DNA from: Alphaproteobacteria bacterium
GTDB taxonomy: Bacteria; Pseudomonadota; Alphaproteobacteria; MPNO01; UBA830
DNA length: 64,000 nucleotides
Assembly: GCA_965243135.1 (NCBI GenBank)
Contig: OZ251539.1
Coordinates: 1 to 64,000, forward strand
Reading direction: 5' to 3'
Below, piece by piece: positions 7,508-62,729 of this stretch. The notes beneath the pieces were generated by a model. It had not been told where the DNA came from. It saw only the letters and a program-made list of their open reading frames with translations, and made no database searches. Made by a program: the position numbers and the translations under genes. Numbering within the stretch: position 1 is the first letter of the stretch; each line of letters starts with the position of its first letter.

Positions 7508-7522
7508 AGCGGGGGGCGGCGC

Positions 7523-8203
7523 TTACGCGTGGGCGGAGCTCGCGTCGTACAGCATCGGGTTCACGCCGATGACCGCGGAATTCAGGTAGTCGTCGAGCTG
7601 CGCCGTCAGTTCGTCCGTCCGGTCGTCGAAAAAGTGATCCGCTCCTTCCACGATCCGGTAGTCGATCGTGATGTCGCGCTGTTGGGAAAGCCTTTCCGTC
7701 AGTTCGCTGACCTGTTCGACGGGCACGATCTTGTCGTCGGCGCCGTGCACGAAGAGGCCGGACGACGGGCAGGGGGCGAGGAAGGAGAAGTCGTAGAGGC
7801 TGGCCGGCGGCGCGACCGAAACGAAACCGGTGATTTCGGGCCGGCGCATCAGGAGTTGCATCGCGATCCAGGCTCCGAACGAAAAGCCGGCGATCCAGCA
7901 TTGCGGCGAGTCGGGATTCGTCGATTGCAGCCAGTCCAGCGCGGCCGCCGCGTCCGAAAGTTCGCCCTCGCCCTCGTCGTAAGCGCCCTGGGAGCGTCCG
8001 ACGCCCCGGAAATTGAACCGCAGAACCGAAAACCCCCGTCGCGCGTAACAGTGAAACATCTGGTACACGACGCGGTTGTTCATCGACCCGCCGTACAGCG
8101 GGTGCGGATGCAGAATCAGGGCGACGGAAGGATTTTCCTGTTTGCTTCGGTGGTAGCGGCCTTCGAGGCGGCCTTCGGGTCCGTTGAAGATGATCTCCGG
8201 CAT
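7523..8203 (-). CDS. Alpha/beta hydrolase (conserved alphaproteobacterial, next to cysteine desulfurase)
   Basis: MPEIIFNGPEGRLEGRY, HPHPLYGGSMNN, GFSFG nucleophile elbow, ADHFF. Confidence 0.9.
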   Translation of the reverse strand: MPEIIFNGPEGRLEGRYHRSKQENPSVALILHPHPLYGGSMNNRVVYQMFHCYARRGFSVLRFNFRGVGRSQGAYDEGEGELSDAAAALDWLQSTNPDSPQCWIAGFSFGAWIAMQLLMRRPEITGFVSVAPPASLYDFSFLAPCPSSGLFVHGADDKIVPVEQVSELTERLSQQRDITIDYRIVEGADHFFDDRTDELTAQLDDYLNSAVIGVNPMLYDASSAHA

Positions 8204-10549: not shown

Positions 10550-11565
10550 ATGAGCTTGCGGGCGTGCTGGACGACCTGCGGCGACGCGTTGTCGATCGCC
10601 TTCTTGACGATCTCCTGGATTCTTGCGCCGCTGGAGGGGATCAGGCGCAACCTGCGTTTCTTGAGCTCGGCCGCGAACTCCGGATCGGCGTTCATCTTGT
10701 CGAACGCGGAGCGAAGCGTCTTCACCGTTTCCGGGTCGACGCCCGGCGGCAGGGCGAGGCCGCGGCCCAGCAATCCGAGAACCTTGATGAAATCCACGGC
10801 CTTCCGGTCCATCTCGTCGGTCACGAGGTCGGAGATCATCGGCACCGATTCGGGAAGGTCGGGGTCGCGGAACACGCCGATCTGGACGATCGGGCGGGCG
10901 AACGGCTTGTCGCCCTCGAACCAGTGCGGGACCTTGGAGGCCCAGGCCAGCCAGTTGAAGGCCGCCATCTGGGTCTCGCCGCGCTCGACGGCGAGGATGG
11001 ATTTCGACGATCCCTTGTAGCCGGTGACCATTTTGACCTTGTACCCGAACAGCCCCTTGAGGAGTTGCGGGAAAATGTATCCGGTCGAGGACTTGCCGCT
11101 CGTGCTTCCGATGACGTTCTTGGCCTTCATGTCGTCGAGCTTCGCGATCCCCGTATCCGTTCTGACGACCATGACGATGTTGGTCTGGTTGCTCGAACCC
11201 AGCCAGATGAACCGGCGGGCGTCGAAACGCATCTTCTCGGGTCGCATGAGCTGGTTGATGACGGCGTTGTCGAGCGGCACGATCATGTTGAGACCGTCCT
11301 TCGGCATCACGTTGTAGGCCCAGTTCATGGCCTTGACTCCGCCGGCTCCGGGCATGTGCTGAAGAATGATGTTGGGATTGCCCGGAATGTGCTTGCCGAG
11401 ATAGTTGGAGAAGGTGACTCCGTATTTGTCGTAGGTGCCGCCGGGTCCGTAGGGAATCACGATCTTGATCGTCTTGCCCTCGAAACTCGTGGCCGCCCAT
11501 GCCGGGCCGGCGACCGTCAGCGCCGCGACTGCGGCCAGTCCCGCGGCTATCGTTTTTGCGCGCAT
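10531..11565 (-). CDS. Tripartite tricarboxylate transporter substrate-binding protein (Bug/TctC family)
   Basis: Signal peptide, [34 protein letters not shown]. Confidence 0.88.
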
Positions 11566-11778
11566 ATCTGCCTCCGTGCTGGACCTGCATCCTGCGCAGG
11601 ACGGCCGCATTCAACGAGGAAACGCGCGCGATTGTCAATCTCCGGGCATGGCGCCGCCCGGCGGCGGCCGTCGCAGGAAGTCGAGCGGGCGTCGGGCAGC
11701 GGAGGTCGCTTTCGGCGGGGGACTCGACTTTTCCCGGAACGGGCGCTATATTCGGCGCGCATCGTGACGGAGCCAGTA

Positions 11779-12048
11779 ATGTCGATTACGCAGCAGCGCA
11801 AAGAGGAGCTGATCCGGGAGTACGCCACCGGAGAAAGCGACACCGGTTCGCCGGAGGTGCAGGTTGCCATCCTTTCGGAGCGCATTCGCAACCTCACCGA
11901 GCATCTGAAGGAGCACAAGAAGGATTTTCATTCGCGCCGCGGCCTGCTGACGATGGTGGGCCGCCGCCGCCGCCTGCTGGATTATCTCAAGCGCAGCAAC
12001 GAAGCGCGGTACGGAACCCTTATCGAGCGTCTGGGTCTGCGGCGCTGA
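11779..12048 (+). CDS. rpsO: 30S ribosomal protein S15
   Basis: [41 protein letters not shown] (89 aa). Confidence 0.98.
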
Positions 12049-12211
12049 TGAATGCGCACGCCGGATCCCCGGCGCAGGAACAGCGATGAATGTCAAGCGG
12101 CCATGGGGGCCGCGCAAAGTCCGCCCGGCTGCCGGGAGGCCGCGTCGCAGCGCGACGTGACGCATGGCCTTGGCGCATGGGAGCGCCGGGCCTGAGGAAG
12201 GAAGCGAGAAG

Positions 12212-14338
12212 ATGTTCTCAGTACATCGCAAGGAGATCGAATGGGGCGGGCGCGCGCTCGCGCTCGAAACCGGAAAGGTGGCCCGCCAGGCCGACGGAGC
12301 CGTCATGGTCACCTACGGCGGCACCACGGTTCTCTGTACGGTCGTGGCGGAAAATTCGCCGAGGCCCGGCATAGATTTTTTTCCGCTGACCGTGAATTAC
12401 CAGGAAAAGTCGTTCGCCGCCGGAAAGATTCCCGGCGGTTTTTTCAAGCGCGAAGGCCGCCCCTCGGAAAAGGAGACGCTTACCTCGCGGTTGATCGACC
12501 GGCCGATCCGGCCGCTGTTCGCCAAGGGCTTCCGCAACGAGACGCAGGTCATCTGCACCGTGCTGGCGCATGACCTCGAAAACGATCCCGACATCGTCGC
12601 CCTGGTCGGCGCGTCGGCCGCGCTGACCATTTCGGGGATTCCCTTCATGGGCCCGATCGGCGCCGCGCGGGTCGCTTACGTCGACGGCAGGTACGCGCTG
12701 AATCCGACGCCGGAGCAGCTCGCCGCCTCGGATCTCGACATGGTGGTGGCGGGCACTGCGGACGCGGTGAACATGGTGGAGTCCGAGGCCAACGAGCTGT
12801 CCGAGAACGTGATGCTCGGGGCGGTCATGTTCGCTCATCGCGAGTTCCGGCCGGTCATCGACCTGATCGTCGGCCTTGCGGAGGAGTGCGCGAAGGAGCC
12901 GTGGAACCTTCCGGCCCAGGCGGACGACGACGAGGAACTGCGCGCCCGCCTTCGGCAGTCCGCCGAGGCGTCCTTGCGGGACGCCTACGCCGAGACCGTC
13001 AAGCAGGCCCGCGTCGAGAAGGTGGCCGAGGCCAAGGCCGCCGCGCTTCGCGGCTTCGAGGACGGCGACGAGGCCGAGCGCGCCGCCGCTCTGATAAAGG
13101 ACGTCGAAAAGGACATCGTTCGCCGCGCCATACTCGATTCGAGCAAGCGCATCGACGGCCGCGACCTGACGGGAGTGCGTCCCATCGAGGCCGAGGTCGG
13201 CGTTCTGCCGCGGGCGCACGGTTCGGCGTTGTTCACCCGGGGAGAGACCCAGGCGATCGCGACCGCCACGTTGGGCACCGGCCAGGACGAGCAGATCGTG
13301 GACGCCCTGGAAGGCGAGTATCGCGAGCACTTCATGCTGCACTACAACTTTCCGCCCTATTCGGTGGGCGAGGCCAGCATGCTGCGTTCGCCCGGCCGCC
13401 GCGAAATCGGCCACGGGAAGCTCGCCTGGAGGGCGATCCGGGCGCTGTTGCCCGGCAAGGAGGACTTCCCCTACACCTTGCGGGTGGTTTCCGAGATCAC
13501 CGAGTCGAACGGCTCTTCGTCGATGGCCACGGTATGCGGCGCCTCGCTGTCGCTCATGGACGCCGGCGTCCCGCTGCGCCGTCCGTGCGCGGGCATCGCG
13601 ATGGGCCTGATCAAGGAGGGAGACAGTTTCGCCGTGCTCTCCGACATTCTCGGCGACGAGGACCATCTCGGCGACATGGATTTCAAGGTCGCCGGCACGG
13701 AACGGGGCATCACCGCGCTGCAGATGGACATCAAGATCACCGGGATCACCGAAGAGATCATGAAGGTCGCGCTCGAGCAGGCTCACGACGGGCGGCTTCA
13801 CATTCTCGGCGAGATGGCGCGGGCGCTCGTGCAGTCGCGGGAGGAGGTCAGCCAGTTCGCGCCGCGCATTTCGACGCTCAGCATCCCGACGGACAAGATT
13901 CGCGAGCTGATCGGCCCTGGCGGCAAGGTCATCCGCGAAATCTGCGAGCAGACCGGCGCCAAGATCGACATCGAGGACGACGGCACGGTCAAGGTCGCGT
14001 CCGTGGACAGCGCCGCCAGCGACGCCGCCATAGACTGGATCAAGTCGATCGTCGCGGAGCCGGAGGTCGGCGCGATCTACACCGGCAAGGTGGTGAAGGT
14101 CGTCGATTTCGGCGCGTTCGTGAACTTCATGGGGACGCGGGACGGTCTGGTTCACGTTTCCGAGCTTCAGAACCGCCGGGTTCCGAAGGTCACCGACGTC
14201 GTCAACGAGGGCGACGAGGTGAAGGTGAAGGTCCTCGCGATCGACGATCGCGGCAAGGTCCGCCTTTCCATGAAGGTGGTCGACCAGCGGACCGGGCAGG
14301 ACCTGTCGAAGCGGGACGACCGCGCGGCGGCGTCCTGA
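12212..14338 (+). CDS. pnp: Polyribonucleotide nucleotidyltransferase
   Basis: [40 protein letters not shown] and S1 domains; follows rpsO. Confidence 0.98.
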
Positions 14339-52022: not shown

Positions 52023-52505
52023 TCAGGCGGCGAGCTCCGCGATTCGGTCGAATTCCGGACCGAAGGCCGCGCACACGATCACGTTTCGGAGTTCCGGAAC
52101 GAACTTGCGATAGAAGCGCCGCGCCGCTCGGTTGCGCCTGACGACGGACCAGAACATCCAGCGGGCGCCCTCGGCGCGGGTTTTGCGCGCGAGGCCCGAA
52201 ACGAGGGCGCGTCCTCCTCCGCGGCGGCGGTAGTTCGCGTCGACGAAGAGGTCGGAGAGATAGACGCCGCGAGTCGCGCTGTCGGTGTCGTAGCCCCAGT
52301 AATAGAGGGCGTAGCCGCGCGGCGCGCCCTCGATCTCGGCGATCAGCGCGCGAAAGGCGGGATCTTCGCCGAAGCCGTCTTCCAGATAGGACCGCGCCGT
52401 GAACTTCGACGGGGGCGCGTCGGTTTGGAGGGATTTCGCCATTTCGGCGACCGCGGCGGCGTCTTCCCGGACTGCGGGACGAACGAGGATTCCGGGACCG
52501 ATCAT
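52023..52505 (-). CDS. GNAT N-acetyltransferase
   Basis: VYLSDLFVDANYRRRGGGRAL, N.AARRFY. Confidence 0.82.
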   Translation of the reverse strand: MIGPGILVRPAVREDAAAVAEMAKSLQTDAPPSKFTARSYLEDGFGEDPAFRALIAEIEGAPRGYALYYWGYDTDSATRGVYLSDLFVDANYRRRGGGRALVSGLARKTRAEGARWMFWSVVRRNRAARRFYRKFVPELRNVIVCAAFGPEFDRIAELAA

Positions 52506-52570
52506 TTCGAGACGCTCCTGAGCGTGAATGCAGGGTTGATTTTCTGGGGGACAATACTGCATATAGCGGC

Positions 52571-54505
52571 ATGGTGGAAAAAAAGCACAAATCGGGAAAG
52601 AAATCCGGGAACGCGAAAGGGACTCGCCGAGCCGCTCCGAGGAAGGCCGCCGCCGGGGCGAAGGGGCCTGCGCGAACCGCGGCGAAAAAGAGCCCCCGCG
52701 GCGCAACCGTCCGCAAGGCGAGGAAGCGCCGCGCGAGAAACTGGTCGCGAGGCGCTCGCGTCGCGGGGTTGACGCTCCGCTGGTTTCTGATCTTCATGGT
52801 CTGGATCGGAGTCGCGGTTTCAGCGGTCGTGGCCTGGTACGCGTACGATCTTCCCGACATAGACAATCTCAAGGTTCCCGAGCGCCGGGCGAGCCTCACC
52901 CTGACCGATGCGGGGGGGCGGTCGATCGCGGTCTACGGCGACCTCTACGCCGGGTCGCTTCAACTGAAGAACATGCCCGCTCATCTGAAGCAGGCGATTC
53001 TCGCCACCGAGGACCGGCGCTTCTTCGAACACGGCGGCTTCGACCCGTTCGCCCTCGCCCGCGCCCTCGCCGTCAACCTGTACGCGGGCCGCATTCGTCA
53101 GGGCGGCAGCACCCTGACCCAGCAACTGGCGAAGAACATCTTTCTGAAGCCCGATCGCACGGTGCGCCGAAAGGTGCAGGAGCTGCTCCTGACCTTCTGG
53201 CTCGAGGCGAACTTCACGAAGGAGCAGATATTCACCCTGTACGTCAACCGCGTCTATCTCGGCTCGGGAGCCTACGGTTTCGAGGCGGCGTCCCGGCGCT
53301 ATTTCGGCAAGTCGGCGCGCCGCGCGACCCTGCTTCAGGCCGCCGTTCTGGCGGGGCTTCTAAAGGCGCCGTCCCGCTATTCGCCGCTGCGCGATCCGGA
53401 AGCCGCCCGGAAACGCGCCGGCACGGTGCTGAAAGCCATGGTCGACGCCGGCTTCATCGACGGCGCGGCGAGGAAGCGCGCCCTGCGCCAAAAGCTGAAC
53501 GTGGTCGCCATCGCCGGCGTCGGCAGGCATTTTTCCGACTGGGTTCTGGAAAGGGTCGCCGGGTTCGTCCGCCGCGACGGCCAGGACCTGATCGTGCGGA
53601 CGACGCTCGACCTGAGATTGCAACGTCTCGCGGAGGCCCGGCTGCGGGCGACGATCGCGAAAAACGGGAAGGCGGGGAACGTCCGTCAGGGCGCGCTGGT
53701 CGCGCTGTCCCACGACGGCGCCGTGCGGGCGATGGTCGGCGGCAGGGACTATTCGGCGAGCCAGTTCAACCGCGCCAGTCAGGCGCTCCGGCAGCCTGGC
53801 TCCGCCTTCAAGCTGTTTGTCTATCTGGCGGCCCTCGAAAGCGGGCTGGCGCCCGACGACATATTCGCCGACCGACCGTTCCGCATCGGAAAATGGCAGC
53901 CGCGCAATCACGAAAAAACGTATCGCGGCGACATCGACATGCGCGAGGCGATGGCGCACTCGATCAACACCGTCGCCGTGAGGATATCGGAGAGGGTGGG
54001 GCGGCGGAAGGTCATCGAAGCCGCGCGGCGGCTCGGCGTTACGTCGCCGATCAGAGCGCATCCCAGTCTCGCGCTGGGCGCGAGCGAGGTGACGCTGCTC
54101 GAACTGACGGGAGCTTATTGCGTGATCGCCAATGGCGGGATCGCCGCGTGGCCTCACGGAATCGCGGAAATCCGCCGCAGCGACGGCACCGTGCTCTACC
54201 GGAGGAAGCGCGGCGAAGGGAGCCGGGTGGTGTCGCGCGGCGTCGCCCGGGATATGCGCGAGCTTTTGCGCGGGGTCGTCGCGGACGGAACCGGCAAGGC
54301 CGCGAATCCCGGCTGGACGGCGGCCGGCAAGACCGGGACCAGCCAGGGCTTCCGGGACGCCTGGTTCGTCGGCTACGCCGGCGATCTCGTCACCGGCGTA
54401 TGGATGGGGAACGACAAAGGCGCCCGCATGAAGGGCGTAACCGGCGGCCAATTGCCGGCGCGTCTGTGGCGGGATTTCATGACGGCGGCTCTCGGAGGAT
54501 CGTAG
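52571..54505 (+). CDS. Class A penicillin-binding protein (PBP1A family)
   Basis: TM anchor, EDRRFF.H.G.D, GGSTLTQQLAKN, RK..E, SAFK, SIN, KTG. Confidence 0.93.
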   Translation: MVEKKHKSGKKSGNAKGTRRAAPRKAAAGAKGPARTAAKKSPRGATVRKARKRRARNWSRGARVAGLTLRWFLIFMVWIGVAVSAVVAWYAYDLPDIDNLKVPERRASLTLTDAGGRSIAVYGDLYAGSLQLKNMPAHLKQAILATEDRRFFEHGGFDPFALARALAVNLYAGRIRQGGSTLTQQLAKNIFLKPDRTVRRKVQELLLTFWLEANFTKEQIFTLYVNRVYLGSGAYGFEAASRRYFGKSARRATLLQAAVLAGLLKAPSRYSPLRDPEAARKRAGTVLKAMVDAGFIDGAARKRALRQKLNVVAIAGVGRHFSDWVLERVAGFVRRDGQDLIVRTTLDLRLQRLAEARLRATIAKNGKAGNVRQGALVALSHDGAVRAMVGGRDYSASQFNRASQALRQPGSAFKLFVYLAALESGLAPDDIFADRPFRIGKWQPRNHEKTYRGDIDMREAMAHSINTVAVRISERVGRRKVIEAARRLGVTSPIRAHPSLALGASEVTLLELTGAYCVIANGGIAAWPHGIAEIRRSDGTVLYRRKRGEGSRVVSRGVARDMRELLRGVVADGTGKAANPGWTAAGKTGTSQGFRDAWFVGYAGDLVTGVWMGNDKGARMKGVTGGQLPARLWRDFMTAALGGS

Positions 54506-54636
54506 CCGGGCGGGAGGGACGGTTGCCGAATCGCCGCCCCCGCAGAGTCCCGGCGGCCGTCCGGACGCCGGTTCGGCGGCCCGGAGGCGGCTTCGGTTCG
54601 CGCGAAAACCTTCGCGCGCGGATTGCCCACGACGGC

Positions 54637-54665
54637 TTGACTTCGATTCGCCGCGACAATATCTT
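54637..54665 (+). promoter_or_regulatory. sigma70-type promoter of Ubl operon
   Basis: TTGACT-17-TATCTT. Confidence 0.55.
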
Positions 54666-54736
54666 TGTTCACGGAAAGTTCGTCCGTCGAGCGGCAAGCG
54701 GCCGCTAATCCCGTCGCCACAGAAGGAAGACGCGGA

Positions 54737-55456
54737 ATGCAGGTTACGGTAGACCGCCAGGAAAGGGAAATCCGGCGCGGGTTGGTCAGTGCAAGCGAAC
54801 TTTACGATCTTGCCGATTGCGGCGAGGAGAGGCTTTTCTTGCATATTGGCGATGACGAGAAGATACCGCTTCTTCCCATGGATCACATGGTCATTCGGGG
54901 CGGCGAAGCCTTCGTTACCGGCGGAGTCGAAATCCAGGACGATGCGCCGTTGAAAAATGCGATTTGCCCGCGTTTCAATGGCGAGCCCGGTCCGGCTCTG
55001 CAGACGGCGAAAATAACGGGAGCGGCTCTGAAGGCGTTGGACAACGAGTTCCCGCGCGGACGCCTGTTCGTCGATGTCCAAGGCGACGTCGACGCGGAGA
55101 TTGTCGACGACATGATGATCGTCGTCCAAAGCGCGGATTCGTTTTTCGTGATTCCCGATGGCGACGACGGCGCGATCGATATCGAAAGCTGCGGCAAGCA
55201 TGATCGTCAGCCTCCGAAAGGGTACCGCTATCGAATCCGGATCGACGGGGAAAAGTACGTCGTGCAATCCGGCAGGATATCGGGCGCGGAAATACTGGAC
55301 ATGGCCGGCAAGAATCCTGACGAATGGTCGCTGAACCAGAAACTTCATGGAGGGAAAAGGGTCAGAATCGAAATCCGCGACGCAGTCGACCTTACCTTGA
55401 AGGGAATAGAGAGATTCGAAACGGTACGCCGGCAGGCGCAGCAGGGCCATGAATGA
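54737..55456 (+). CDS. Multi-ubiquitin domain protein (about 3 beta-grasp domains)
   Basis: IDIE..KHDRQPPKGYRYRIRIDGEKY..ISGAEIL..AGK.P..W.L.QKL.GG..VDL...GIERF; C-terminal QQG-HE. Confidence 0.82.
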   Translation: MQVTVDRQEREIRRGLVSASELYDLADCGEERLFLHIGDDEKIPLLPMDHMVIRGGEAFVTGGVEIQDDAPLKNAICPRFNGEPGPALQTAKITGAALKALDNEFPRGRLFVDVQGDVDAEIVDDMMIVVQSADSFFVIPDGDDGAIDIESCGKHDRQPPKGYRYRIRIDGEKYVVQSGRISGAEILDMAGKNPDEWSLNQKLHGGKRVRIEIRDAVDLTLKGIERFETVRRQAQQGHE

Positions 55457-55838
55457 TCCTTTCGAACTGCTTCCGGAAGATGCAGAGTATCTGGACGCGA
55501 ATCATCCCGGAAAATGGCGGAAGGTGAGCGAGGGAAACGGAAAATTCGGTTTGCTTATCGAAGAATTTGCCGTTCCGAAGGGATATCGTCCAGAGAATTC
55601 CTGCCTGATGATTCTGGTTCCGGCAGGCTATCCGGCATCGCCTCTCGACATGTTCTATTTCGACCCCCCGCTCGGGAATGCCGACGGCGCCGCACTCGCC
55701 GCGATCGCTTTCGAGGAGCATTTCCGGAGACGATGGCAAAGATGGTCGCGCCATTATCAATGGAACCCGGGAGAGGACAATCTGGCAAGCCATGTCGAGT
55801 ACGTCCTTAACGAGCTTCGGACGCGAGCGCTGCAATGA
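55449..55838 (+). CDS. Prokaryotic E2/UBC-like protein (family E type)
   Basis: LLPEDAEYL, F.VPKGY, ILVPAGYP.SPLDMFYF.PPL, WQRWSRH..W.PG.DNL.SH. Confidence 0.85.
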   Translation: MNDPFELLPEDAEYLDANHPGKWRKVSEGNGKFGLLIEEFAVPKGYRPENSCLMILVPAGYPASPLDMFYFDPPLGNADGAALAAIAFEEHFRRRWQRWSRHYQWNPGEDNLASHVEYVLNELRTRALQ

Positions 55839-57226
55839 GACGCCCGATCCTGGCAATGACGAAAACCATGCATAAGACGGTTTTCGATTATCTGTTTCCG
55901 GGAGACGGGCTTGAGGCGGCTGGCGTTCTGCTTTGCAATCAAGGAACGGGTAAGCGTTGCCAGCGGCTTCTTGCTGCGGAATTTCTGCATTTGCCTCATA
56001 ATCTGTCGGAAAGAAGACCGGATTTCGTTTCCTGGCCTTTCAGCGAGCACATGACGCCGGATCGGATCGGAGAGGCGGACCGAAAGGGTCAAACGATCAT
56101 CGCCATTCATTCGCACCCGAAGGGCGGCGGTCATTTTTCGGAGATTGACGACAAGAACGATCTGGAGCTGCTCAAATCGATAAATGGATGGTTTGACGAT
56201 GAGCGGACGAACGGAGTCGCGGTCATGACGCCGGACGGGGCGATTGCCGCCAGAACGATGGGTGAAGATCGAGGTTTCAGGAATGTCGAGGCAGTCTCGG
56301 CAGTAGGAAGCAGCATTCGAATATGGAAGTCCCGTCGGGAAGATCAGCATACTGCGTATGAAGCGAAGATGTCGCAGACCTTCGGGCAGGGAACCCTCGA
56401 ACTTCTGAAGTCGATGAGAATCGGAGTCGTTGGATGTTCGGGAACCGGCAGCATCGTGATCGAATTGCTGGCGCGAAACTGCGTGGGGGAACTTGTCATT
56501 GTCGACGACGACGTTCTGGAAGAAAAGAATCTCAATCGCGTTGTTGGCGGCACGATGAAGGATGCGCGCGCAGGGCGTCCGAAGGCGGCCGCGATACGGG
56601 ACGCTATCGGCGAGACGGGACTCGAAACTCGAGTCGAAGCGTATCGCGGCGTTACCGATTCGCCGGAGGTGATTTCGGCGTTGATCGATTGCGACGCGAT
56701 TTTCGGATGCGTCGATTCCGCGTTCGGCAGGTATCACCTGGACTGTCTGGCCAGCGCCTATCTGATTCCGTATTTCGACGTCGGCGTCCACATCGAGGCT
56801 GACGGAACCGGCGGGATCCGGGCGGCCGACGCCGTTGCGCACTATGTGCATCCGGACGGGCTCAGCCTGATCTCGAGAGGCGCCTATACGATGGAACAGG
56901 TCGCGGCCGAAGACTGGAGAAGGACCGATCCGGCGCACTATCGGAGACAGCGCATGGCGGGGTATCTGGCCGAAGTGGGCGAAGAACAGCCTGCGGTCAT
57001 GTCGGTCAACATGCAGGCGGCGTGCATGGCGTTCAACGACTTCATGGCGCGCATTCACGCCTTCCGGCTGGACGGCAATCACGAGTTCGGAACGCAAAGG
57101 TTCAGACTGGTGCACGGTTGCTATGAAAACGAGGCCGACGCCGGAGCTCCGCATCCGCTTCTCGGACGTTATGCAGGGACCGGGGACGGCAGCCTTCTGG
57201 TTCGGAACAATACCCGTCGTGATTAG
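55835..57226 (+). CDS. JAB peptidase - E1/ThiF fusion protein
   Basis: N-terminal E..HSHP..FSEIDD JAMM motif; C-terminal VVGCSGTGS, VDDD.LE.KNLNRV, FGCVDS, PAVMSVN. Confidence 0.85.
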   Translation: MRRPILAMTKTMHKTVFDYLFPGDGLEAAGVLLCNQGTGKRCQRLLAAEFLHLPHNLSERRPDFVSWPFSEHMTPDRIGEADRKGQTIIAIHSHPKGGGHFSEIDDKNDLELLKSINGWFDDERTNGVAVMTPDGAIAARTMGEDRGFRNVEAVSAVGSSIRIWKSRREDQHTAYEAKMSQTFGQGTLELLKSMRIGVVGCSGTGSIVIELLARNCVGELVIVDDDVLEEKNLNRVVGGTMKDARAGRPKAAAIRDAIGETGLETRVEAYRGVTDSPEVISALIDCDAIFGCVDSAFGRYHLDCLASAYLIPYFDVGVHIEADGTGGIRAADAVAHYVHPDGLSLISRGAYTMEQVAAEDWRRTDPAHYRRQRMAGYLAEVGEEQPAVMSVNMQAACMAFNDFMARIHAFRLDGNHEFGTQRFRLVHGCYENEADAGAPHPLLGRYAGTGDGSLLVRNNTRRD

Positions 57227-57584
57227 GTGGCTGTTCAACGCGATGGCGTTCCTGCATCCCTACGGAACCGAATGGGTGGAAAATCCGCCCGAGGAAATCC
57301 GGCGAAATACGGTGTATGTCGTCGGCGGCCGCGAACATCCATTCCAAGCCGGGGTCGCGTGCCCGCGAAAGAGGTGCAAGCACGTCATTTACCTGGATAT
57401 CGCGCCGGAGATAACCCGACGTTGGTCTCTGACGGAACACGATGACGGGCGCGTTTCGCTGTCTCCGTCGGTGCATGTGACAAGATTGCCTTGCAGATGC
57501 CACTACTGGATAAAACGAGGACGCATATGTTGGAGCGAAACGCCGCGTTTGCGCGTGCCGAAGGAGAATACAAGTGATCCGTAG
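57219..57584 (+). CDS. DUF6527-like Cys/His (putative Zn-binding) protein
   Basis: ACP..C...I.L....W.L......SLSPSV....CRCHYWI..G.I.W; GTG start overlaps the E1 gene (alternative ATG 57243). Confidence 0.75.
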   Translation: MIRWLFNAMAFLHPYGTEWVENPPEEIRRNTVYVVGGREHPFQAGVACPRKRCKHVIYLDIAPEITRRWSLTEHDDGRVSLSPSVHVTRLPCRCHYWIKRGRICWSETPRLRVPKENTSDP

Positions 57585-57923
57585 GATAATCATTGAGAAT
57601 TTCAAGAAGTTCGGTCGGCTGGAGTGCGACGACATTCCGGATAATTGCATCATTGTTGGCCCCAACAATTCCGTAAGCGTTCGGTCGTGGGGTGGCGACG
57701 TTGAGGCCTGCCTCCAGGCAGGGGCTTCAACCAGACGTCCTTGACCGGGAGGGCGCGTTCGTTTCGGGTACTGCCGCGGCCTACGCCGCCCCTCTGGTTG
57801 GCACCCGGCAACAGGTTTCTCGCGAAGTCCCGGAGAGTAAGCGTTCGGTTGCGAAGCGGGCTGTCGAGCCAGGCGAATCGCCCAGGCCTGGACACTCTTC
57901 TTTTGTTCTTGTATACGGCTGCC

Positions 57924-59570
57924 ATGGCGGTCGAATCTGCACGCACGCTTTCCGGGACCGAGCTGTCGGGCGACGGCCAAGCTCTGGCTGCGGCATGCCG
58001 AGCGAATGCGGCTCTCTGCCAGGCGCTGGAAAGCGCACTCGATAAAGCGGAGAAGTTTCGCCGCGACGCCGAGAGGTGGCAGGGAGCTTTCCACCGGGCG
58101 ATGGCGCTGATTAGAATCCTGAAAAAGAGACGCGAGGCGCCGCCCCGAGAGACGGCAGAGAACGAGAGTCTGAAGTCCCGCAGCCGCAGGTTTGCCCGGG
58201 AGTTGTTCGGGCGCCGCAGCGAGCGGCAGCCTACGGCAACCGGTCGACGCCGGGGGCGCAGTCAGGGAACGCCGTCGCACGGCCGCACGCCGCACCCCGA
58301 GCTGCCCGTTCGCGAGGAGGAGTCGCTTCCGGACGAGCGCACGTGTCCGGACTGCGGCAAGGCCTGGGTCTCGAACGGTTGGAAGGACACGGATCTCATC
58401 GAGACCAGGACCGTCACCTATGTCCGGAGGATTCGACGGAAGCGGCTGCGCCCGACCTGTACCTGCCGACCGGAAAAGGAGGCCGTCGGCCCGGCTCCGG
58501 CGCGGCTGTTTCCGAACACTCGGTACGGAGTTTCCGTCTGGGCGTACGTCCTGGCGGAGAGGTACGGCCTGCACCGTCCGTTGCGCTCGGTCTGCCGCGC
58601 GCTGGGTCAGCACGGGCTTGCCATTGCGCCCGGCACGTTGGCGGACGCTCAGCGGGGATTCCTGCGACTGTTCGAGCCGCTCGACGATGAGATCTCCCGG
58701 CGCCTGTCGGAGGCGCCGGTCGTTCACGGCGACGAAACAGGGTGGTGGATACGGGAGTTGGGCGAAGAAGACGGCGGCAACGCTCGCGCCTGGGCATGGA
58801 TCGCCCGGTCGGCGGACGCGGTTCGCATCGTTATTCTGCCGTCGCGCAGCGCGGAAGCCGCCCTTGAACTGTTCAGGGGGCTCGGCTCGCCCGAACAGGC
58901 GGCTCACCTGGTCTGCGACCGCTACTCCGCCTACCGGAAGCTGGCGCGCGTCATGGAAGGGTGCATCGTCCTTTCATATTGTTGGGTCCATGCCAGACGG
59001 GACTTCATCAACCTTGAGACCGGCTACCCGAACCTCGCGAAGTTCGCCCAAAAATGGCTTCGTCACATTGCGGCATTGTACCGACTCAACGCCAGGCGTC
59101 TGGCGTGTCCGGGCAACGCCGCCGCCCAGCGGCGGCTCGCGAGATTCGCCGGAGCGTTCTTCGCGGCGGCGAAAAAGGCACGGGACGCGCTTCCGGAGAG
59201 CGCGGCGCAACGCGGCCCTCTGGACTCCCTGCTACGCCACCGCGACGGCCTGACAGTGTTCGTCGACAACGCAGACGTTCCCATGGACAACAACCCCGCC
59301 GAACGCGGCCTGCGCGGCCTCGCGATCGGCCGGAAGCTCTCGTTCGGGTCGCATAGCGTGGACGGAGCGCAGTTGGCGGGCATGCTCTATTCCATCTTCG
59401 GCACGCTCGAGATGGCCGGCGTCTCGCCGTACCGCTGGCTACTCGGTTATCTCGATGCCTGCGCCCGGCATCGCGGTCCGCCGCCCGAAGGCCCTGCTGC
59501 CTGGCTGCCGTGGGGCGCAGGCGAGGAGCGTCTCCGCTCCTGGCGTCCCGCTCTCCCCCAAGGACCGTGA
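57924..59570 (+). CDS. IS66-family transposase (TnpC-like)
   Basis: LFGRRSE, CPDCG Zn finger, HGDETGW, CDRYSAY, CWVHARR.F, DNNPAERGLR..AIGRK. Confidence 0.93.
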   Translation: MAVESARTLSGTELSGDGQALAAACRANAALCQALESALDKAEKFRRDAERWQGAFHRAMALIRILKKRREAPPRETAENESLKSRSRRFARELFGRRSERQPTATGRRRGRSQGTPSHGRTPHPELPVREEESLPDERTCPDCGKAWVSNGWKDTDLIETRTVTYVRRIRRKRLRPTCTCRPEKEAVGPAPARLFPNTRYGVSVWAYVLAERYGLHRPLRSVCRALGQHGLAIAPGTLADAQRGFLRLFEPLDDEISRRLSEAPVVHGDETGWWIRELGEEDGGNARAWAWIARSADAVRIVILPSRSAEAALELFRGLGSPEQAAHLVCDRYSAYRKLARVMEGCIVLSYCWVHARRDFINLETGYPNLAKFAQKWLRHIAALYRLNARRLACPGNAAAQRRLARFAGAFFAAAKKARDALPESAAQRGPLDSLLRHRDGLTVFVDNADVPMDNNPAERGLRGLAIGRKLSFGSHSVDGAQLAGMLYSIFGTLEMAGVSPYRWLLGYLDACARHRGPPPEGPAAWLPWGAGEERLRSWRPALPQGP

Positions 59571-60439
59571 GCGGCAGCCCCCGCCGCTACTGCGGGCGCG
59601 ACTTCTCCGAGGACGAGGTCGACATGATCCGCGGCCTGATCGCGAGGGGCGGCCTCCACCGCCGGGCGCTGTCGCGGGAGGTCTGCCGCCGCCTCGACTG
59701 GCGCAAGCCCGACGGCGGCCTAAAGGATATGAGCGCGCGCGTCGCCATGTTGCGCATGCATCGCGACGGCGTGATCGTCTTGCCGCCGCCAAGGCGCGCG
59801 CCGGTCGTCCGCCGTCCGCTCGTGCCCGGTCCCGCGACCGACAGGCCCCCGTTCCCGACCCCCGAGCGTCTCGCCGATATCCAACCCGTCGCCGTTGAGC
59901 CCGTCCGGAACGCGGGCGAAGGCCGCCTCTGGAACGAGTTCGTCGCTCGCTACCACTATCTCGGCTATTCGACGCTGCCCGGCGCGCAGATGCGATACTT
60001 CGTTCGGGCCGCCGGAGGCGAACCCCTCGCCGTCCTCGGCTTCGGCGCCGCGGCCTGGAAGATCGCGCCGCGGGACAAGCTTGTCGGGTGGGATCCCGAG
60101 ACCCGCCGCCGCAACCTGCCTCTCGTGGTCAACAATGCAAGGTTCCTGATCTTGCCGTGGGTCCGGATCAAAAACCTCGCGTCCTGCATCCTTGCCATGG
60201 TTGAATGTCGCCTGCCCGACGATTGGGAAGGCCGCTACGCGTTGCGCCCGGCCCTGATGGAGACCTTCTGCGAGAGCACGCGCTTCGAAGGAACCTGCTA
60301 CCGGGCCGCCAACTGGACCAAGGTCGGCAAAACGCAGGGCCGCGGCAAGCTCGATACCCGGAAAGAACGCGCTCTCCCGGTCAAGGACATCTGGCTGAAA
60401 CCCCTGCGCCGGGACTGGAGGCGGCTCCTCAATGAATAG
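59567..60439 (+). CDS. DUF4338 (Druantia DruA-like) domain protein, IS passenger
   Basis: RYCGR.F, LSREVC..LDWR..G.LKDM, WNEFV.RYHYLGY, RD..VGW, VVNNARFLILPW, ETF, GTCYRAANW..VG.T.GRG; GTGA overlap with transposase. Confidence 0.82.
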   Translation: MSGSPRRYCGRDFSEDEVDMIRGLIARGGLHRRALSREVCRRLDWRKPDGGLKDMSARVAMLRMHRDGVIVLPPPRRAPVVRRPLVPGPATDRPPFPTPERLADIQPVAVEPVRNAGEGRLWNEFVARYHYLGYSTLPGAQMRYFVRAAGGEPLAVLGFGAAAWKIAPRDKLVGWDPETRRRNLPLVVNNARFLILPWVRIKNLASCILAMVECRLPDDWEGRYALRPALMETFCESTRFEGTCYRAANWTKVGKTQGRGKLDTRKERALPVKDIWLKPLRRDWRRLLNE

Positions 60440-62294
60440 GCCATCACCCCACGACCGAACGCTTACACAATTCCGGAAAGACCACCCTGCTGCAGGCGAT
60501 CGCCGCATGGTCGGAAATCGGATATTTGTGGCGCAACTCCTCTCCCGATTTGACGCGAGACGATTCTGGAAAGTATCACTTTTTGAAACTTGATCTGGCG
60601 AATTTTGGAACCATCTCGTCGCCAAATTTTTCCGAAATTTGGAAAGATAAAGAAGTTTCAAATCCGGCTTCCGTGTCCATTGAAACGGAAAGCTGGACCG
60701 TGGGATTCGAATTCGTCTATGAAGAACTCGGGACCGCTTCCATAAGGCCGAATTCGGACGTCAAAGAAGACGATCTGGAAAAATATCTGCATGAACCTTT
60801 CTCGGTCGGGTATATCTCCGCGCTGTCGAGTATGGACGCAAAAGAATCGATATATGGTCGCGAGGTTGTTTCGTCCCGTCTCGCACGCGGCCGAGGCGGC
60901 GAGGTAATCAGAAACATGTTGCGTACAGTCTACGAACACGACAATAAATGGAACAGTTTGCAGGCGACGATCAGAGATCTGTTCGGCTATGAAATTCAGC
61001 CGCCAAGCGGCGCGGATCCAATCTTCGCCGGTTATCGGCACTCGAAAGGCGGTGTATGGCACGATCTTTCGAGCGCAGCTAGCGGGTTTCTCCAGATCCT
61101 GATGGCTCATGCGGCGCTTTTGTACGAGGAATCTGATATTTTGTTGTTCGACGAACCCGATACCCACCTGCATAATTTATTGGAAGAAAGAATATACCAC
61201 AGTCTTAAGGATCATGCCAAGGGACGTCAGCTAATCATAGCGACGCATTCAAGACAGTTGATCGACGCAGCAGTTCGGGAGAATTCCGACCGCTTATTGA
61301 TCGTCACTTCCGAGGGATTGAAGAAGATCAAGAAGCAGGATGCGAATGAAATTAACAGAAGAGAAACGATCGAAATAGTAAACGCAGAAACGGAACGCGC
61401 CGTTCTGTATCTTGAAGGGCAAACGGATCTCAATATTTTGAAGGGATGGGCCAACGTTCTAGATCATTCATCGCGGCAACTTCTTGAAGCTCCTTTTTTT
61501 GTAGCAACGGCAGGGAAAGCGAACAAGCAGGCATTTTCCAAAAAGCACTTTGGTTCTCTGAAAGCTATAGTTCCAAATCTTCGCGGATTGGAGATACGTG
61601 ACGGAGACGGCAAGGAGCATAGTACGCCTAAGACGCCTCAAGGTTTTGCAATTATGTATTGGAAATGGTACGAGATCGAGAATTATTTGATTCACCCTGA
61701 ATCGCTCCTTCGCTATATTAGGGATGAAATTGGAATAGCAGAGAAAAGAGCTGCGGAAGAATATATGACAAAGAATCTTCCTCAAAGTAAATTTGAAAAA
61801 CCGTTTGATGACAGTTTTGTAGACAAGACAAAGGGAAAAGATATAATCAAAGATATTTTTGATAAGGCAAATTGCAATTTGCCTGCAACTGAATATTACC
61901 AGATCGCGAAACGGATGAGAGGCGATGAGATTCACCCGGAGGTTAAAGATAAATTAGACAAAATCGCCGATCTGAAGTCAGCCGATCTGAAGTCATAGGA
62001 CGAGAGCTACAGTATCGGCCATGCTAGGTCGGTCCTAACTGGACGGTATCTTCAACGCCTGCGCCGTCTGAGAACCCATGGAGCGTGCGTCGGCAGCCCC
62101 GGCTCCCTTCGCTCTGCGTAATTCAGGAGGCGCAGCCGAGGCGCGGCGCGCTTGCGGAGAAAGTTCGTTTCGTCGCCGGACGTTCGGCGGGGAGTGCGCG
62201 CCGCTGCGGTTTCGCCGGTCATGCGGGAAGCGATCCGCCAGATCCGGCGGTGCCAAGCGAAGTTGCGAGCGGATTTTTCGGCGGAACCTCCCGT

Positions 62295-62729
62295 CTATTC
62301 CGGCCAGGAAACGATCCTGTCTTCGGGATCGATTCTTCGAGACTCTCGAACCACCTTGCCCCGAACCGAGATCCCGGCGCGATGGACCGTTTCGGGGTCG
62401 CCGGAAACCAGCGGGTGCCACCAGAACAACTCCTTTCCTTCGGCGACCAGCCGATAGGCGCAGGTCGAAGGCAGCCATCCGCCGCTTCGCGCGAGTTCCG
62501 GAGTTATCCGGACGCAATCGGGCACGCGGTCGTTGCGGTTGCGGTAGTCGCCGCATCTGCAACTGTCCCGGTCGAGCAACCTGCAGGCGACGTCGGTGTA
62601 CGCGACCTCGCCCGTATGGACGTCTTCCAGCTTGAGCAGGCAGCACCGTGCGCACCCGTCGCACAGCGATTCCCATTCGTCGCCGCTCATCTCCTCGAGC
62701 CGTTTCCTGGTCCAGAAGGGATCGGTCAA
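62295..62729 (-). CDS. YcgN family cysteine cluster protein
   Basis: [35 protein letters not shown]. Confidence 0.92.

Follow-up and report, generated by a model that had tools for sequence, protein, structure and literature searches.

Four overlapping genes, bubA, bubB, bubCD, and bubE, lie on the (+) strand at positions 54737-57584 of the window, the 64,000-nucleotide stretch of contig OZ251539.1 (assembly GCA_965243135.1, Alphaproteobacteria bacterium) that was analyzed here. The 6E/DUF6527 operons, which the initial annotation had treated as a class separate from Bub, have been renamed "Bub" (Ye et al., bioRxiv 10.1101/2024.11.21.623953). A fifth gene, split by an insertion element, follows bubE, and the features of the region are listed below.

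52571-54505, PBP gene, one flank of the island
54637..54665, plus strand, promoter-like site TTGACT-17-TATCTT, agreeing with the consensus at 9 of 12 positions and lying 72 nt before bubA; weak evidence
54737..55456, plus strand, bubA, 239-aa ubiquitin-like protein (Ubl) with three beta-grasp domains (Pfam Multi_ubiq, 4.9e-15)
55449..55838, plus strand, bubB, 129-aa E2 of the Prok-E2_E type (Pfam, 1.4e-26)
55835..57226, plus strand, bubCD, 463-aa JAB/JAMM peptidase plus ThiF-type E1 (Pfam ThiF, 7e-23; Prok-JAB, 1.9e-07)
57219..57584, plus strand, bubE, 121-aa DUF6527 protein from GTG 57219 (Pfam DUF6527, 1e-14)
57574..57672, plus strand, opening 33 codons of the fifth gene (OLD/PARIS-like ABC ATPase), which begins with GTG and has GGAG 7 nt upstream
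57673..60466, plus strand, IS66-family insertion element of 2794 bp (transposase and DruA/DUF4338-like ORF)
57741-59570, IS66 transposase (Pfam DDE_Tnp_IS66, 2.4e-50; NCBIfam transpos_IS66, 7.6e-79)
59510-60439, DruA/DUF4338-like ORF within the element (Pfam DruA, 4.7e-43)
60475..61998, plus strand, last 507 codons of the fifth gene, with the end of Walker A, then Walker B, the H-loop, and a predicted C-terminal Toprim-like domain
62295-62729, minus strand, ycgN, the other flank of the island (NCBIfam, 9.2e-69)

The four overlapping genes and their domains had been called correctly in the initial annotation, which described a complete operon at 54637..57584, inserted between the PBP gene and ycgN. 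Those two genes do flank the insertion; the island between them measures 7.8 kb, not 3 kb. Position 54637 belongs to a -35-like hexamer and is not a coding start, and the promoter-like match is not above chance, with 2 sites of this quality in 54400-57800 compared to 1.2 ± 1.1 in shuffled sequences. The operon ends later than 57584, since the fifth gene begins at GTG 57574, 11 nt inside bubE.

The start of bubA at ATG 54737 agrees with its four closest homologs (P0001-P0004, all 239 aa), which begin at the aligned position. The bubA/bubB overlap spans 8 nt (ATGAATGA) and places the bubB ATG inside the codons of the bubA C-terminal cap, in the +1 frame, while bubB and bubCD overlap by 4 nt. Homologs of bubE begin M-I-R-W-L-F-N at the position aligned to GTG 57219, and the start was placed there for this reason; the bubCD/bubE overlap is then 8 nt (GTGATTAG), and the ATG 57123 start in the list of open reading frames is probably an over-extension. 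G+C content is 0.55-0.62 over the bub genes and 0.65-0.70 in the flanks. A CapH/CapP-type regulator, found in 11 related loci, is absent upstream at the window locus, and neither CapW nor CapK/CapS adjoins the operon. The PADLOC and NCBIfam libraries contained no match to BubA, BubB, or BubE.

Catalytic residues of the Bub proteins

BubA ends in ...RRQAQQG-HE-stop, as initially annotated, with the reactive Gly237 followed by a two-residue His-Glu cap. Such a cap is present in 74 of 84 stand-alone Ubl homologs, and Q235, Q236, and G237 are invariant in 77 sequences. The reading of three Ubl domains was upheld by an AlphaFold2 model (pLDDT 91.9, pTM 0.87), for which the best Foldseek match was the full-length Citrobacter three-domain Ubl 9d5a (E 3.2e-12, 241 columns), with a further match to 9cd2 (4.9e-10); the last domain matches 9ea8_B (TM 0.80, rmsd 1.4 Å). 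BubA has in this respect the form of a Type I Bub Ubl, with beta-grasp domains ending in a conserved Gly.

BubB aligns with the solved Citrobacter BubB (PDB 9eae_C, 6.5e-18), its QRWSRH and LDMFY motifs falling on S333/H335/D299, such that D67, S100, and H102 correspond to D299, S333, and H335. Ser100/His102/Asp67 stand in for a catalytic Cys, and the sole Cys of BubB, C52, is away from this site. BubCD matches the solved Citrobacter BubCD (PDB 9ea4_A) at 1e-68 over residues 6-438, with an identity of roughly 40-45% as estimated by eye on the printed alignment. The fusion of a JAB domain carrying HSHP..S..D to a ThiF-type E1 was confirmed: HSHP occupies residues 92-95, followed by S102..D105, and the JAB domain is N-terminal to the E1 in one 463-aa protein. 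JAB residues E27, H92, H94, and D105 correspond to E28, H91, H93, and D104 of Citrobacter BubCD, and in the E1 R235 corresponds to R227 and Y377 to Y370. The E1 crossover loop contains Tyr377 and no Cys, the nearest Cys residues (304 and 397) lying outside the loop. All published catalytic residues are kept in the window's bub proteins according to sequence alignment. The matches to Pfam and to the Citrobacter proteins support the earlier proposal that this is likely a protein-conjugation operon of the Ubl/E2/JAB-E1 type, though not the cysteine chemistry that went with it, given the Ser/His E2 site and the Cys-free E1 loop.

A mechanism can be carried over from the Citrobacter system on the basis of these kept residues. 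The JAB domain of BubCD would trim the His-Glu cap to expose Gly237 of BubA, which the E1 domain would adenylate. The Ubl would then form an oxyester with Tyr377 in the E1 crossover loop, move on to Ser100 of BubB, and end up on lysines of target proteins. BubE would grip the Ubl tail in its Ser84/His95 site and cleave conjugates, acting as a brake. ATP-dependent Ubl conjugation via oxyester intermediates has been shown only for Citrobacter and E. coli proteins (10.1101/2024.11.21.623953). In that work, BubE of Citrobacter was found to be a Ser-His peptidase with a C4 zinc site that, when co-expressed, strips Ubl conjugates in cells; its peptidase activity was lost in the S92A and H102A mutants (10.1101/2024.11.21.623953).

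The window's BubE has an N-terminal hydrophobic stretch and a Ser84/His95 dyad, with the Ser conserved in 136 and the His in 135 of 137 aligned family members. An Arg replaces the second Cys of the published CxCxC zinc site. Of the four Cys positions of the family, three are thereby retained, and a Cys two residues before the His takes the place of the fourth; a Cys at this Cys94 position occurs in 23 of 32 members without the published second Cys, compared to 6 of 105 members that have it. We infer that Cys94 takes over from the missing Cys and that Cys48, Cys53, Cys92, and Cys94 likely form a zinc site, in which case BubE would combine the Ser-His dyad and predicted four-Cys zinc site of a Type I DUF6527 protein. 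The AlphaFold2 model of BubE (pLDDT 91.3, 8 strands) had no Foldseek match in the PDB at E ≤ 0.001, RING-like folds included (best 0.47), and a search of the PDB with the sequence returned one chance match (E 0.56) and no BubE chain. A model of BubE in complex with BubA residues 158-239 scored 0.64, the best of three controls scoring 0.00; 58 of 80 solved complexes reach the mark used, as do 2 of 110 mismatched pairs, counts that are rough because our own alignments were used here. Runs agreed in at least 92% of contacts, partner pLDDT was at least 78, and the absence of a BubE chain from the PDB means that the result is not a memory of a solved complex. In the modeled interface, BubA residues 230-239 lie on BubE residues 74-82 and 87, covering Ser76 and His87 (113-aa numbering), and the C-terminal tail of the Ubl is thus predicted to sit on the Ser-His dyad.

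A fifth gene interrupted by an IS66-family element

The N-terminus encoded from GTG 57574 matches the MIRKVVVxNFKK starts of 44 relatives. After codon 33, inside the Walker A motif, the gene is cut by the IS66-family element. The transposase match to NCBIfam transpos_IS66 exceeds the model's cut-off of 180 bits. The ends of the element are inverted, with arms of 28 nt (93%) and 53 nt (89%), and a perfect 8-bp target duplication, ACAATTCC, is found at 57665-57672 and 60467-60474. An 8-bp duplication is typical of IS66, and together with the DDE transposase and the terminal inverted repeats it identifies the family. Because the duplication is perfect and the 26 of 26 conserved ATPase columns checked in the window carry the commonest residue of their column, the insertion is judged recent.

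The 507-codon part matches Pfam AAA_21 (4.6e-14) and PADLOC AriAB (9e-17), and is 47% identical to its ortholog at related locus L020. The PADLOC models AriAB, AriA, Old, and ATPase-Toprim_I-B match 31 of 31 aligned members of the family, and the best PDB profile match is the OLD-family nuclease 6p74 (2e-14), followed by PtuA, GajA, and AriA. An ABC ATPase is indicated by matches to AAA_15/AAA_21 and by G33 K34, D262-D265, and T295-S297, which are invariant in 31 sequences and all kept in the window. The C-terminal part carries E..D, D.D, and E.E motifs, and the invariant family columns E352/D356, D414, and E438/E440 fit a Toprim-like site. Pfam identified no DUF4435 or Toprim domain in this part of the protein; the PADLOC AriAB model spans the region in 31 of 31 members, and atlas leads pointed to DUF4435 (0.95) and OLD-like_TOPRIM (0.91). 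The protein encoded by the fifth gene is predicted to combine an OLD/PARIS-like ABC ATPase and a Toprim-like nuclease domain. In relatives it is a single ORF of about 535-570 aa, not a two-gene ariA/ariB pair.

Related loci and known systems

The gene order A-B-CD-E is found in 66 of 79 related loci. In 49 of the 79, bubE is directly followed, in the same orientation, by an ortholog of the window's ATPase that is 33-47% identical along almost all of the 507-aa part; downstream sequence of at least 1700 nt is available for 72 of the 79 loci. Its start codon overlaps bubE by 4-26 nt in all 44 evaluable loci. Pairwise distances of BubCD and the ATPase are correlated over 41 loci (Mantel r 0.88, with 0 of 2000 permutations as high), and a single clade of the BubCD tree, with 51 rows and support 99, contains the ATPase-linked loci, the gene being present in 48 of these rows. 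By this tree the ATPase became linked to the bub genes essentially once, and it has since spread with them through at least seven phyla. In a second Bub subclade, 8 of 10 scanned loci have a different ABC ATPase upstream in the same orientation, along with a weakly PIN-like protein; Bub has in this subclade been paired with an ATPase-nuclease module a second time, independently. Cassette G+C is below that of the flanks in 44 of 48 loci, fitting a mobile island, and BubCD homologs occur on 178 plasmid records; no match to BubCD was found in the phage collection. Restriction-modification, GmrSD, AbiEii, and Cas2 genes are among the defense genes around Bub operons in relatives.

All Type I operons have been described as BubAB fusions (Ye et al., 10.1101/2024.11.21.623953), whereas bubA and bubB of the window are separate and in different frames. 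Among the related loci, the two genes are split in 50, fused in 22, and not scorable in 7; on the BubCD tree the two arrangements are interleaved, which requires at least five changes. It is for these two reasons, the 50 split loci of 79 and the interleaving, that the locus is filed as a split variant. We consider it probable that the four genes at 54737-57584 are a Type I Bub (6E.1/DUF6527) operon of the split variant, with translationally coupled Ubl and E2 genes, at the front of a five-gene mobile cassette.

The closest system described is that of Citrobacter sp. RHBSTW-00271, reported in the preprint of Ye, Gong, Chambers, and Corbett, which later appeared in Nat Struct Mol Biol (2026). 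The two share gene order, a three-beta-grasp Ubl ending in Gly, a JAB-E1 fusion, a Ser/His/Asp E2, a Cys-free E1 loop with Tyr, and a DUF6527 protein that has a hydrophobic stretch at its N-terminus and a Ser-His dyad. However, the Ubl and E2 of the window come from separate overlapping genes, with a two-residue cap, where Citrobacter makes one pre-protein; the window's BubE has one zinc ligand moved; and the window operon has a predicted ATPase-Toprim gene coupled to bubE and no CapH/CapP, CapW, or CapK/CapS neighbor. The text of the Ye et al. preprint contains none of the words "ATPase," "nuclease," "Toprim," "effector," or "OLD." Type II Bub (BubA, BubBD, BubE) similarly has a stand-alone Ubl gene, a DUF6527 peptidase, and the Tyr/Ser oxyester chemistry predicted for the window, but its E2 is fused to the E1 and JAB is usually missing, while the window has a free-standing E2 and a JAB-E1 fusion. 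A Bil operon, as described by Ye et al., likewise encodes a Ubl, an E2, a JAB peptidase, and an E1, with a Ubl C-terminal extension that must be removed and a multi-ubiquitin fold (BilA 8u38 matches BubA at 2.2e-06). In contrast to the window, which has one ThiF domain, fused to JAB, and no catalytic Cys at the E1 loop or E2 site, Bil has a separate JAB, uses cysteine thioesters, and has an E1 with two adenylation domains and a mobile Cys domain; antiviral activity is proven for Bil but not for Bub. The fifth gene shares an ABC-type Walker A, Walker B, and H-loop and Toprim-like acidic motifs with PARIS and OLD. PARIS consists of two proteins, the AriA ABC ATPase and the AriB Toprim nuclease (Nature 2024;634:424), whereas the fifth gene encodes one polypeptide of about 540 aa and, unlike PARIS and OLD, is the last, overlapping gene of a ubiquitination-like operon, with no Pfam DUF4435 or Toprim match.

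Alternative readings of the cassette

The four bub genes could be the whole system, and the ATPase-Toprim gene an independent PARIS/OLD-type single-gene defense that joined once and has been hitch-hiking since. This is possible, if somewhat doubtful: a single origin on the BubCD tree and tight linkage in a mobile cassette could explain co-inheritance, PARIS- and OLD-type proteins are reported to act on their own, characterized Bub operons have been described without such a gene, and other defense genes surround Bub operons in relatives. The G+C of the window's ATPase gene (0.459, compared to 0.573 for its bub genes) differs strongly, the mean difference in relatives being 0.029, and could reflect a separate history for the window copy. 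However, mere hitch-hiking sits less well with a start codon that overlaps bubE in 44/44 loci, with retention in 48/51 clade rows and seven phyla, with the strongly correlated distances, and with the other ATPase-nuclease module of the second subclade. The initial annotation had cast the DUF6527 protein as an E3-like adaptor, choosing targets for a cysteine-based E1-E2 cascade. The four-Cys cluster of BubE does resemble a zinc finger, BubE is predicted to bind Ubl, and before testing Ye et al. noted that its Ser-His pair could in principle serve Ubl transfer (10.1101/2024.11.21.623953). Such a role is nonetheless highly improbable, being contradicted for the Citrobacter homolog by the published peptidase assays and inactive mutants; the dyad is kept in the window, BubE has no fold match to RING or any solved structure at E ≤ 0.001, the window's E2 and E1 loop are without a catalytic Cys, and in the model the Ser/His site is occupied by the C-terminal tail of the Ubl itself rather than by a target.

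The initial annotation had called the system probably defensive; Bub might instead serve stress-response tagging, e.g., with Ca2+-dependent Ubl filaments storing or releasing the tag. According to the Discussion of Ye et al. (10.1101/2024.11.21.623953) and a 2026 EMBO J paper, phage protection in E. coli has not been obtained with any Bub operon; Gong et al. report in a preprint that Ubls with three domains assemble into Ca2+-dependent filaments; and BubCD was without a match in the phage collection. This reading seems rather unlikely in light of the defense-like neighbors (the OLD/PARIS-like ATPase, CapH/CapP-like regulators in 11 loci, and restriction genes), the low G+C of the cassette in 44/48 loci, and the plasmid-borne homologs. 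That the whole cassette is a decaying, non-functional remnant here is likewise unlikely. The fifth gene is split by the IS and is also broken in 4 of 49 relatives (L005, L035, L044, and L045), which suggests a costly gene, and a dedicated regulator is lacking at the window locus; on the other hand, the four bub frames are open with every catalytic residue kept, and the intact ATPase columns and perfect target duplication mark the IS event as recent. The cassette is therefore probably disabled in its ATPase arm by the insertion, with conjugation genes that look intact.

In the preferred reading of a split Type I Bub operon heading a five-gene cassette, the locus differs from the published description of Type I Bub in its split bubA/bubB and its coupled fifth ATPase gene, and we infer that the ATPase protein is the effector or sensor arm. 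Type II CBASS, as summarized by Ye et al., offers a parallel in Cap2/Cap3, where a bacterial E1/E2 and a peptidase turn an immune effector pathway on and off by conjugation and de-conjugation, although CBASS conjugates the signaling enzyme itself, without a separate Ubl and by cysteine chemistry. As a working analogy, Cap2/Cap3 suggests that the bub genes may control the ATPase-nuclease.

A Type I Bub operon on a low-G+C island

In the window, a 7.8-kb island of reduced G+C is bounded by a class A PBP gene and ycgN; G+C is 0.55-0.62 in the bub genes and 0.41-0.50 in the last gene, compared with 0.65-0.70 outside the island. The main features are:

52571-54505, plus strand, class A PBP gene (Pfam Transgly 1.2e-60, Transpeptidase 4.6e-36)
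54737-55456, bubA, Multi_ubiq protein, the Ubl (Pfam 4.9e-15)
55449-55838, bubB, Prok-E2_E protein, the E2 (Pfam 1.4e-26)
55835-57226, bubCD, Prok-JAB + ThiF fusion, the JAB-E1 protein (Pfam 1.9e-07 and 7e-23)
ending at 57584, bubE, DUF6527 protein (Pfam 1e-14)
57673-60466, IS66-family element of 2794 bp with inverted ends (transposase, NCBIfam 7.6e-79)
59510-60439, DruA/DUF4338-like ORF of 309 aa within the IS66 element (Pfam 4.7e-43)
62295-62729, minus strand, ycgN (NCBIfam 9.2e-69)

Pfam thus matched the whole domain content that the initial annotation had given the four bub genes. Its start at 54637 proved to be the first hexamer of a promoter-like TTGACT-17-TATCTT rather than a gene start, and such sites are not above chance (2 sites vs 1.2 ± 1.1 in shuffles); the bubA ATG lies at 54737, the aligned position where the four closest homologues begin. 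The start of bubE is most likely GTG 57219, rather than ATG 57123 of the ORF list, because homologues begin M-I-R-W-L-F-N there. This GTG overlaps the bubCD stop by 8 nt, giving overlaps of 8, 4, and 8 nt at the bubA/bubB, bubB/bubCD, and bubCD/bubE junctions. At the island ends, no direct repeats appeared when the 20 largest repeat families (of 51) were inspected. The 5′ end of the PBP ORF as listed runs ~135 nt into a GNAT acetyltransferase ORF on the minus strand (52023-52706); in one of these two ORFs, the annotated start probably lies too far upstream.

According to the available text of two preprints (bioRxiv 10.1101/2024.11.21.623953; 10.1101/2024.11.21.623966), "Bub" is the new name of the 6E/DUF6527 operons. 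In the literature searched, DUF6527 was treated only in the preprints of Ye, Gong, Chambers, and Corbett and of Gong et al., both from the same laboratory. In Citrobacter, the JAB domain cleaves after a conserved Gly, the E1 lacks a catalytic Cys and uses the crossover-loop Tyr370 instead, and the E2 works through Ser333, with His335 and Asp299 (bioRxiv 10.1101/2024.11.21.623953). The window proteins match the solved Citrobacter chains (BubCD at 1e-68 over residues 6-438, BubB at 6.5e-18) and keep the published catalytic residues: E27, H92, H94, and D105 in the JAB domain, R235 and Y377 in the E1 domain, whose loop is without Cys, and D67, S100, and H102 in BubB, where the single Cys is located elsewhere. 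The Ubl ends RRQAQQG-HE. Its AlphaFold2 model has three beta-grasp units (pLDDT 91.9, pTM 0.87), with the full-length three-domain Citrobacter Ubl 9d5a as best PDB match (E 3.2e-12) and the E. coli ZDHYS365 Ubl 9cd2 as second (4.9e-10). Superposition of the last domain on Citrobacter BubA 155-229 gave a TM of 0.80 and an rmsd of 1.4 Å. Given the kept catalytic residues and the matches to solved chains, it is close to certain that the four genes form a Type I Bub module for conjugation and de-conjugation. PADLOC left the Ubl, E2, and DUF6527 proteins unmatched and gave generic E1-E2 matches on the ThiF part only, and BubA, BubB, and BubE are without an NCBIfam model.

The protein-conjugation system proposed in the initial annotation is borne out by these matches and residues, and that part of its interpretation stands. 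It lagged behind the literature in treating DUF6527 operons as a class apart from Bub, which was wrong, the two being the same operons under successive names. If residue conservation is a guide to the chemistry of the window's module, the cap would be removed from the Ubl, Gly237 adenylated, and an oxyester formed with Tyr377 and moved to Ser100, from which the Ubl would be placed on a target lysine; BubE would act as a de-conjugating brake.

BubE and the separate Ubl and E2 genes

BubE had also been proposed as an E3-like adaptor, and this part of the interpretation fell. In Citrobacter, BubE acts as a weak peptidase through Ser92/His102, carries a four-Cys zinc site, and strips conjugates in cells (bioRxiv 10.1101/2024.11.21.623953). 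A family search returned 468 matches at E ≤ 0.001 among 1.84 billion representatives. In an alignment of 137 members, for which 136 of 150 listed representatives (95-170 aa) were taken in, the dyad Ser is present in 136, the dyad His in 135, and the first Cys in all. The BubE model (pLDDT 91.3) has eight strands, agreeing with the published scheme; it matched no PDB fold, RING-like or other, at E ≤ 0.001, and the PDB holds no BubE-like chain. The modeled complex between BubE and the last Ubl domain scored 0.64, with a best of 0.00 among 3 controls; this score was reached by 58/80 solved complexes and 2/110 mismatched pairs, counts that are only rough because the alignments were home-made. Runs agreed in at least 92% of contacts, with partner pLDDT of at least 78, and laid Ubl tail residues 230-239 along BubE 74-82 and 87 (113-aa numbering), the segment with the Ser and His. 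Such a placement is as expected of a Ubl-specific peptidase, as a prediction of binding rather than proof. On the published peptidase data, the absent fold match, and the complex model, the reading of BubE as an E3 or RING-like adaptor was rejected.

The zinc site of the window protein has a swapped ligand. Within BubE residues 48-95 (57360-57503), the second Cys of CxCxC is Arg, and a new Cys lies two positions ahead of the catalytic His. Among the 137 aligned members, the new Cys occurs in 23/32 of those without the old Cys vs 6/105 of those with it.

Type I Bub operons have been described as always encoding a BubAB pre-protein (bioRxiv 10.1101/2024.11.21.623953), whereas most relatives found here have separate Ubl and E2 genes. 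In the window, bubA and bubB lie in different frames, with the E2 ATG inside the two cap codons. The best 120 Ubl homologues comprise 84 stand-alone and 36 fused forms (77 of the 120 entered the alignment), and exactly two residues follow QQG in 74 of the 84. In 79 related genomic loci, the two genes are split in 50 and fused in 22, with 7 unscored, four of these having another C-terminal motif and three no A or B match. Among the split loci, 22 of 50 have an 8-nt [A/G]TGnnTRA overlap identical to the window's; in six, the overlap is 4 nt and the cap a single residue, and in eight (L053, L054, L057, L066, L067, L068, L070, and L071; BubA/BubB junctions near 8700), the Ubl stops directly after the reactive Gly. 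A FastTree tree of BubCD with 71 rows requires at least 5 changes between the split and fused states, and a Neotabrizicola RefSeq plasmid has multiubiquitin, E2, ThiF, and DUF6527 annotated as separate genes. Because the same arrangement recurs across homologues and loci, the split is not a sequencing slip. Nor does anything favor a programmed +1 frameshift yielding a BubAB fusion: bubB has its own ATG or GTG at all 22 window-type junctions, and other relatives have 4-nt overlaps or a capless Ubl. The split majority corrects the view that Type I operons always yield a pre-protein.

The JAB HSHP motif is found in 74/75 loci and its Glu in 48/75, the latter an undercount by the strict GDGxE pattern. 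Since the eight Gly-ending Ubls need no trimming and their loci all keep both the motif and the Glu, the JAB domain may have a role beyond trimming of the pre-protein.

A fifth gene downstream of bubE

In the window, a fifth gene begins at GTG 57574, 11 nt inside bubE and 7 nt downstream of GGAG. It opens like an ABC-type ATPase, is broken within Walker A after 33 codons by the IS66-family element, and picks up its frame at 60475 for 507 codons, to 61998. A perfect target duplication of 8 bp, ACAATTCC, flanks the element (57665-57672 and 60467-60474). As the window ATPase keeps the commonest residue at 26/26 conserved columns checked, the IS hit is recent. The locus is a horizontally acquired island whose fifth gene was freshly knocked out by a transposon; with that gene disabled in this genome, the ATPase takes no part in whatever the bub genes still do here. 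Within the element, the DruA/DUF4338-like ORF sits beside a 609-aa transposase, and its last codons are repeated, inverted, near the left IS end (arms 57718-57770 and 60355-60407). The ATPase gene ends in a perfect tandem duplication of 15 nt (61966-61995), which repeats a five-residue tail.

The fifth protein matches Pfam AAA_15/AAA_21, and the PADLOC AriAB, AriA, Old, and ATPase-Toprim_I-B models match 31/31 aligned members (best AriAB, 1.9e-24). A PDB profile search placed the OLD-family nuclease 6p74 first (2e-14), followed by PtuA, GajA, and AriA. Pfam found no Toprim domain; the C-terminal 230 residues hold invariant acidic columns (E352, D356, D414, E438, and E440, in the numbering of the nearest relative, L020) and resemble the ESM Atlas clusters DUF4435 (0.95) and OLD-like Toprim (0.91), which are leads only.

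In 49 of the 79 loci, of which 72 have at least 1700 nt of downstream sequence, an orthologue follows bubE directly on the same strand, with 33-47% identity over nearly the full length. Its start overlaps bubE by 4-26 nt in each of the 44 loci that allowed both ends to be located, and the N-terminus reads MIRKVVVxNFKK in relatives, the window being alike. Distances of BubCD and ATPase are correlated (Mantel r 0.88, 41 loci; 0/2000 permutations as high), and on the BubCD tree the ATPase-linked loci fall in one clade (51 rows, support 99) with the gene in 48/51. Members of this clade come from Pseudomonadota, Latescibacterota, Rhodothermota, Nitrospirota, Thermodesulfobacteriota, Gemmatimonadota, and Chloroflexota. 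The window's sister on the tree is the alphaproteobacterial L020 (BubCD identity 71%), whose cassette adjoins exbD/tonB, not a PBP gene; cassette G+C is below that of the flanks in 44/48 loci. Orthologue recurrence, start overlap, correlated distances, and a single supported clade argue that the fifth gene is no chance neighbor, and the cassette is inherited as five genes.

The relatives are almost all metagenome-assembled genomes, many with names (Poriferihabitans, Porisulfidus, Tethybacter) that suggest a sponge association; going by these names only, the seven-phylum spread would imply frequent horizontal transfer within one habitat. A CapH/CapP-type regulator pair has been reported for 31% of Bub operons (bioRxiv 10.1101/2024.11.21.623953). 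Scans covered 110 of 141 upstream and 74 of 125 downstream ORFs with Pfam; a divergent HTH_3 + Peptidase_M78 pair, of this CapH/CapP type, lies upstream in eleven main-clade loci, and there is none in the window. The phage collection gave no BubCD match. Plasmids gave 178 matching records, all below 60% identity, and an ATPase was absent 3′ of the two plasmid operons inspected.

A distant subclade is a second, independent Bub-ATPase pairing. Ten of its loci were scanned (L048, L050, L051, L052, L055, L057, L060, L065, L066, and L072), and in eight of them (all except L055 and L066; about 5650-8000) bubA is directly preceded, on its own strand, by a distinct AAA_15 ATPase (about 420-450 aa). 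Between this ATPase and bubA, seven of the eight (not L065) encode a ~177-aa protein that is weakly PIN-like (PF01850 in 4/10 aligned members, best 0.0013). A ~950-aa ResIII-type protein lies downstream in seven subclade loci (about 10770-13750), including six of the eight AAA_15 loci (not L051 or L052).

A candidate output for the Bub pathway

No Bub operon protected E. coli from phage (bioRxiv 10.1101/2024.11.21.623953), a statement repeated by the same group in 2026 (EMBO J, PMC13373217). In the literature consulted, we found no Bub target, effector, or phage phenotype. The accessible text of the Bub preprints does not mention an ATPase, nuclease, Toprim, or effector, although supplementary tables listing operons could record neighbors or split forms; OLD is likewise not mentioned in the text of the Ye et al. 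preprint (bioRxiv 10.1101/2024.11.21.623953). A wider literature search returned no further work on these operons, the journal version of Ye et al. aside.

OLD/PARIS-like ATPase-nucleases are of a known abortive-infection type. One possible, still tentative reading is that in this clade Bub, instead of standing alone as a tagging system, serves as control arm within a five-gene immune cassette, with the putative ATPase-Toprim nuclease as its killing arm; conjugation and removal by BubE would toggle the nuclease. Targets of the three-domain Ubl would be the nuclease itself or a phage protein sensed by it, and reversal by BubE would make this an on/off switch. A parallel is proposed with CBASS, which is primed and restrained by Cap2 and Cap3. 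The fifth gene is also broken in 4/49 relatives (L005, L035, L044, and L045; about 10900-13960), which fits a costly, toxic effector; these copies suffered frameshifts, an insertion of ~1.5 kb (L035), and loss of the N-terminus (L045). Conversely, because the pairing has one main origin, linkage alone could explain the association. On operon structure, the chances that the ATPase-nuclease is functionally tied to conjugation seem close to balanced.

The window operon is a new member of a recently characterized family, and what it adds is the split Ubl/E2 and the conserved, putative ATPase-nuclease partner. Bub systems are the most divergent ubiquitination-like systems known, since no catalytic cysteine is used, and their biochemistry is solved. 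If true, a control-arm function would supply the missing effector of Bub and suggest why four-gene Bub operons have shown no phage protection yet. A putative ATPase-nuclease whose gene start overlaps bubE in about fifty species and seven phyla is a concrete, testable candidate for the pathway's missing output.
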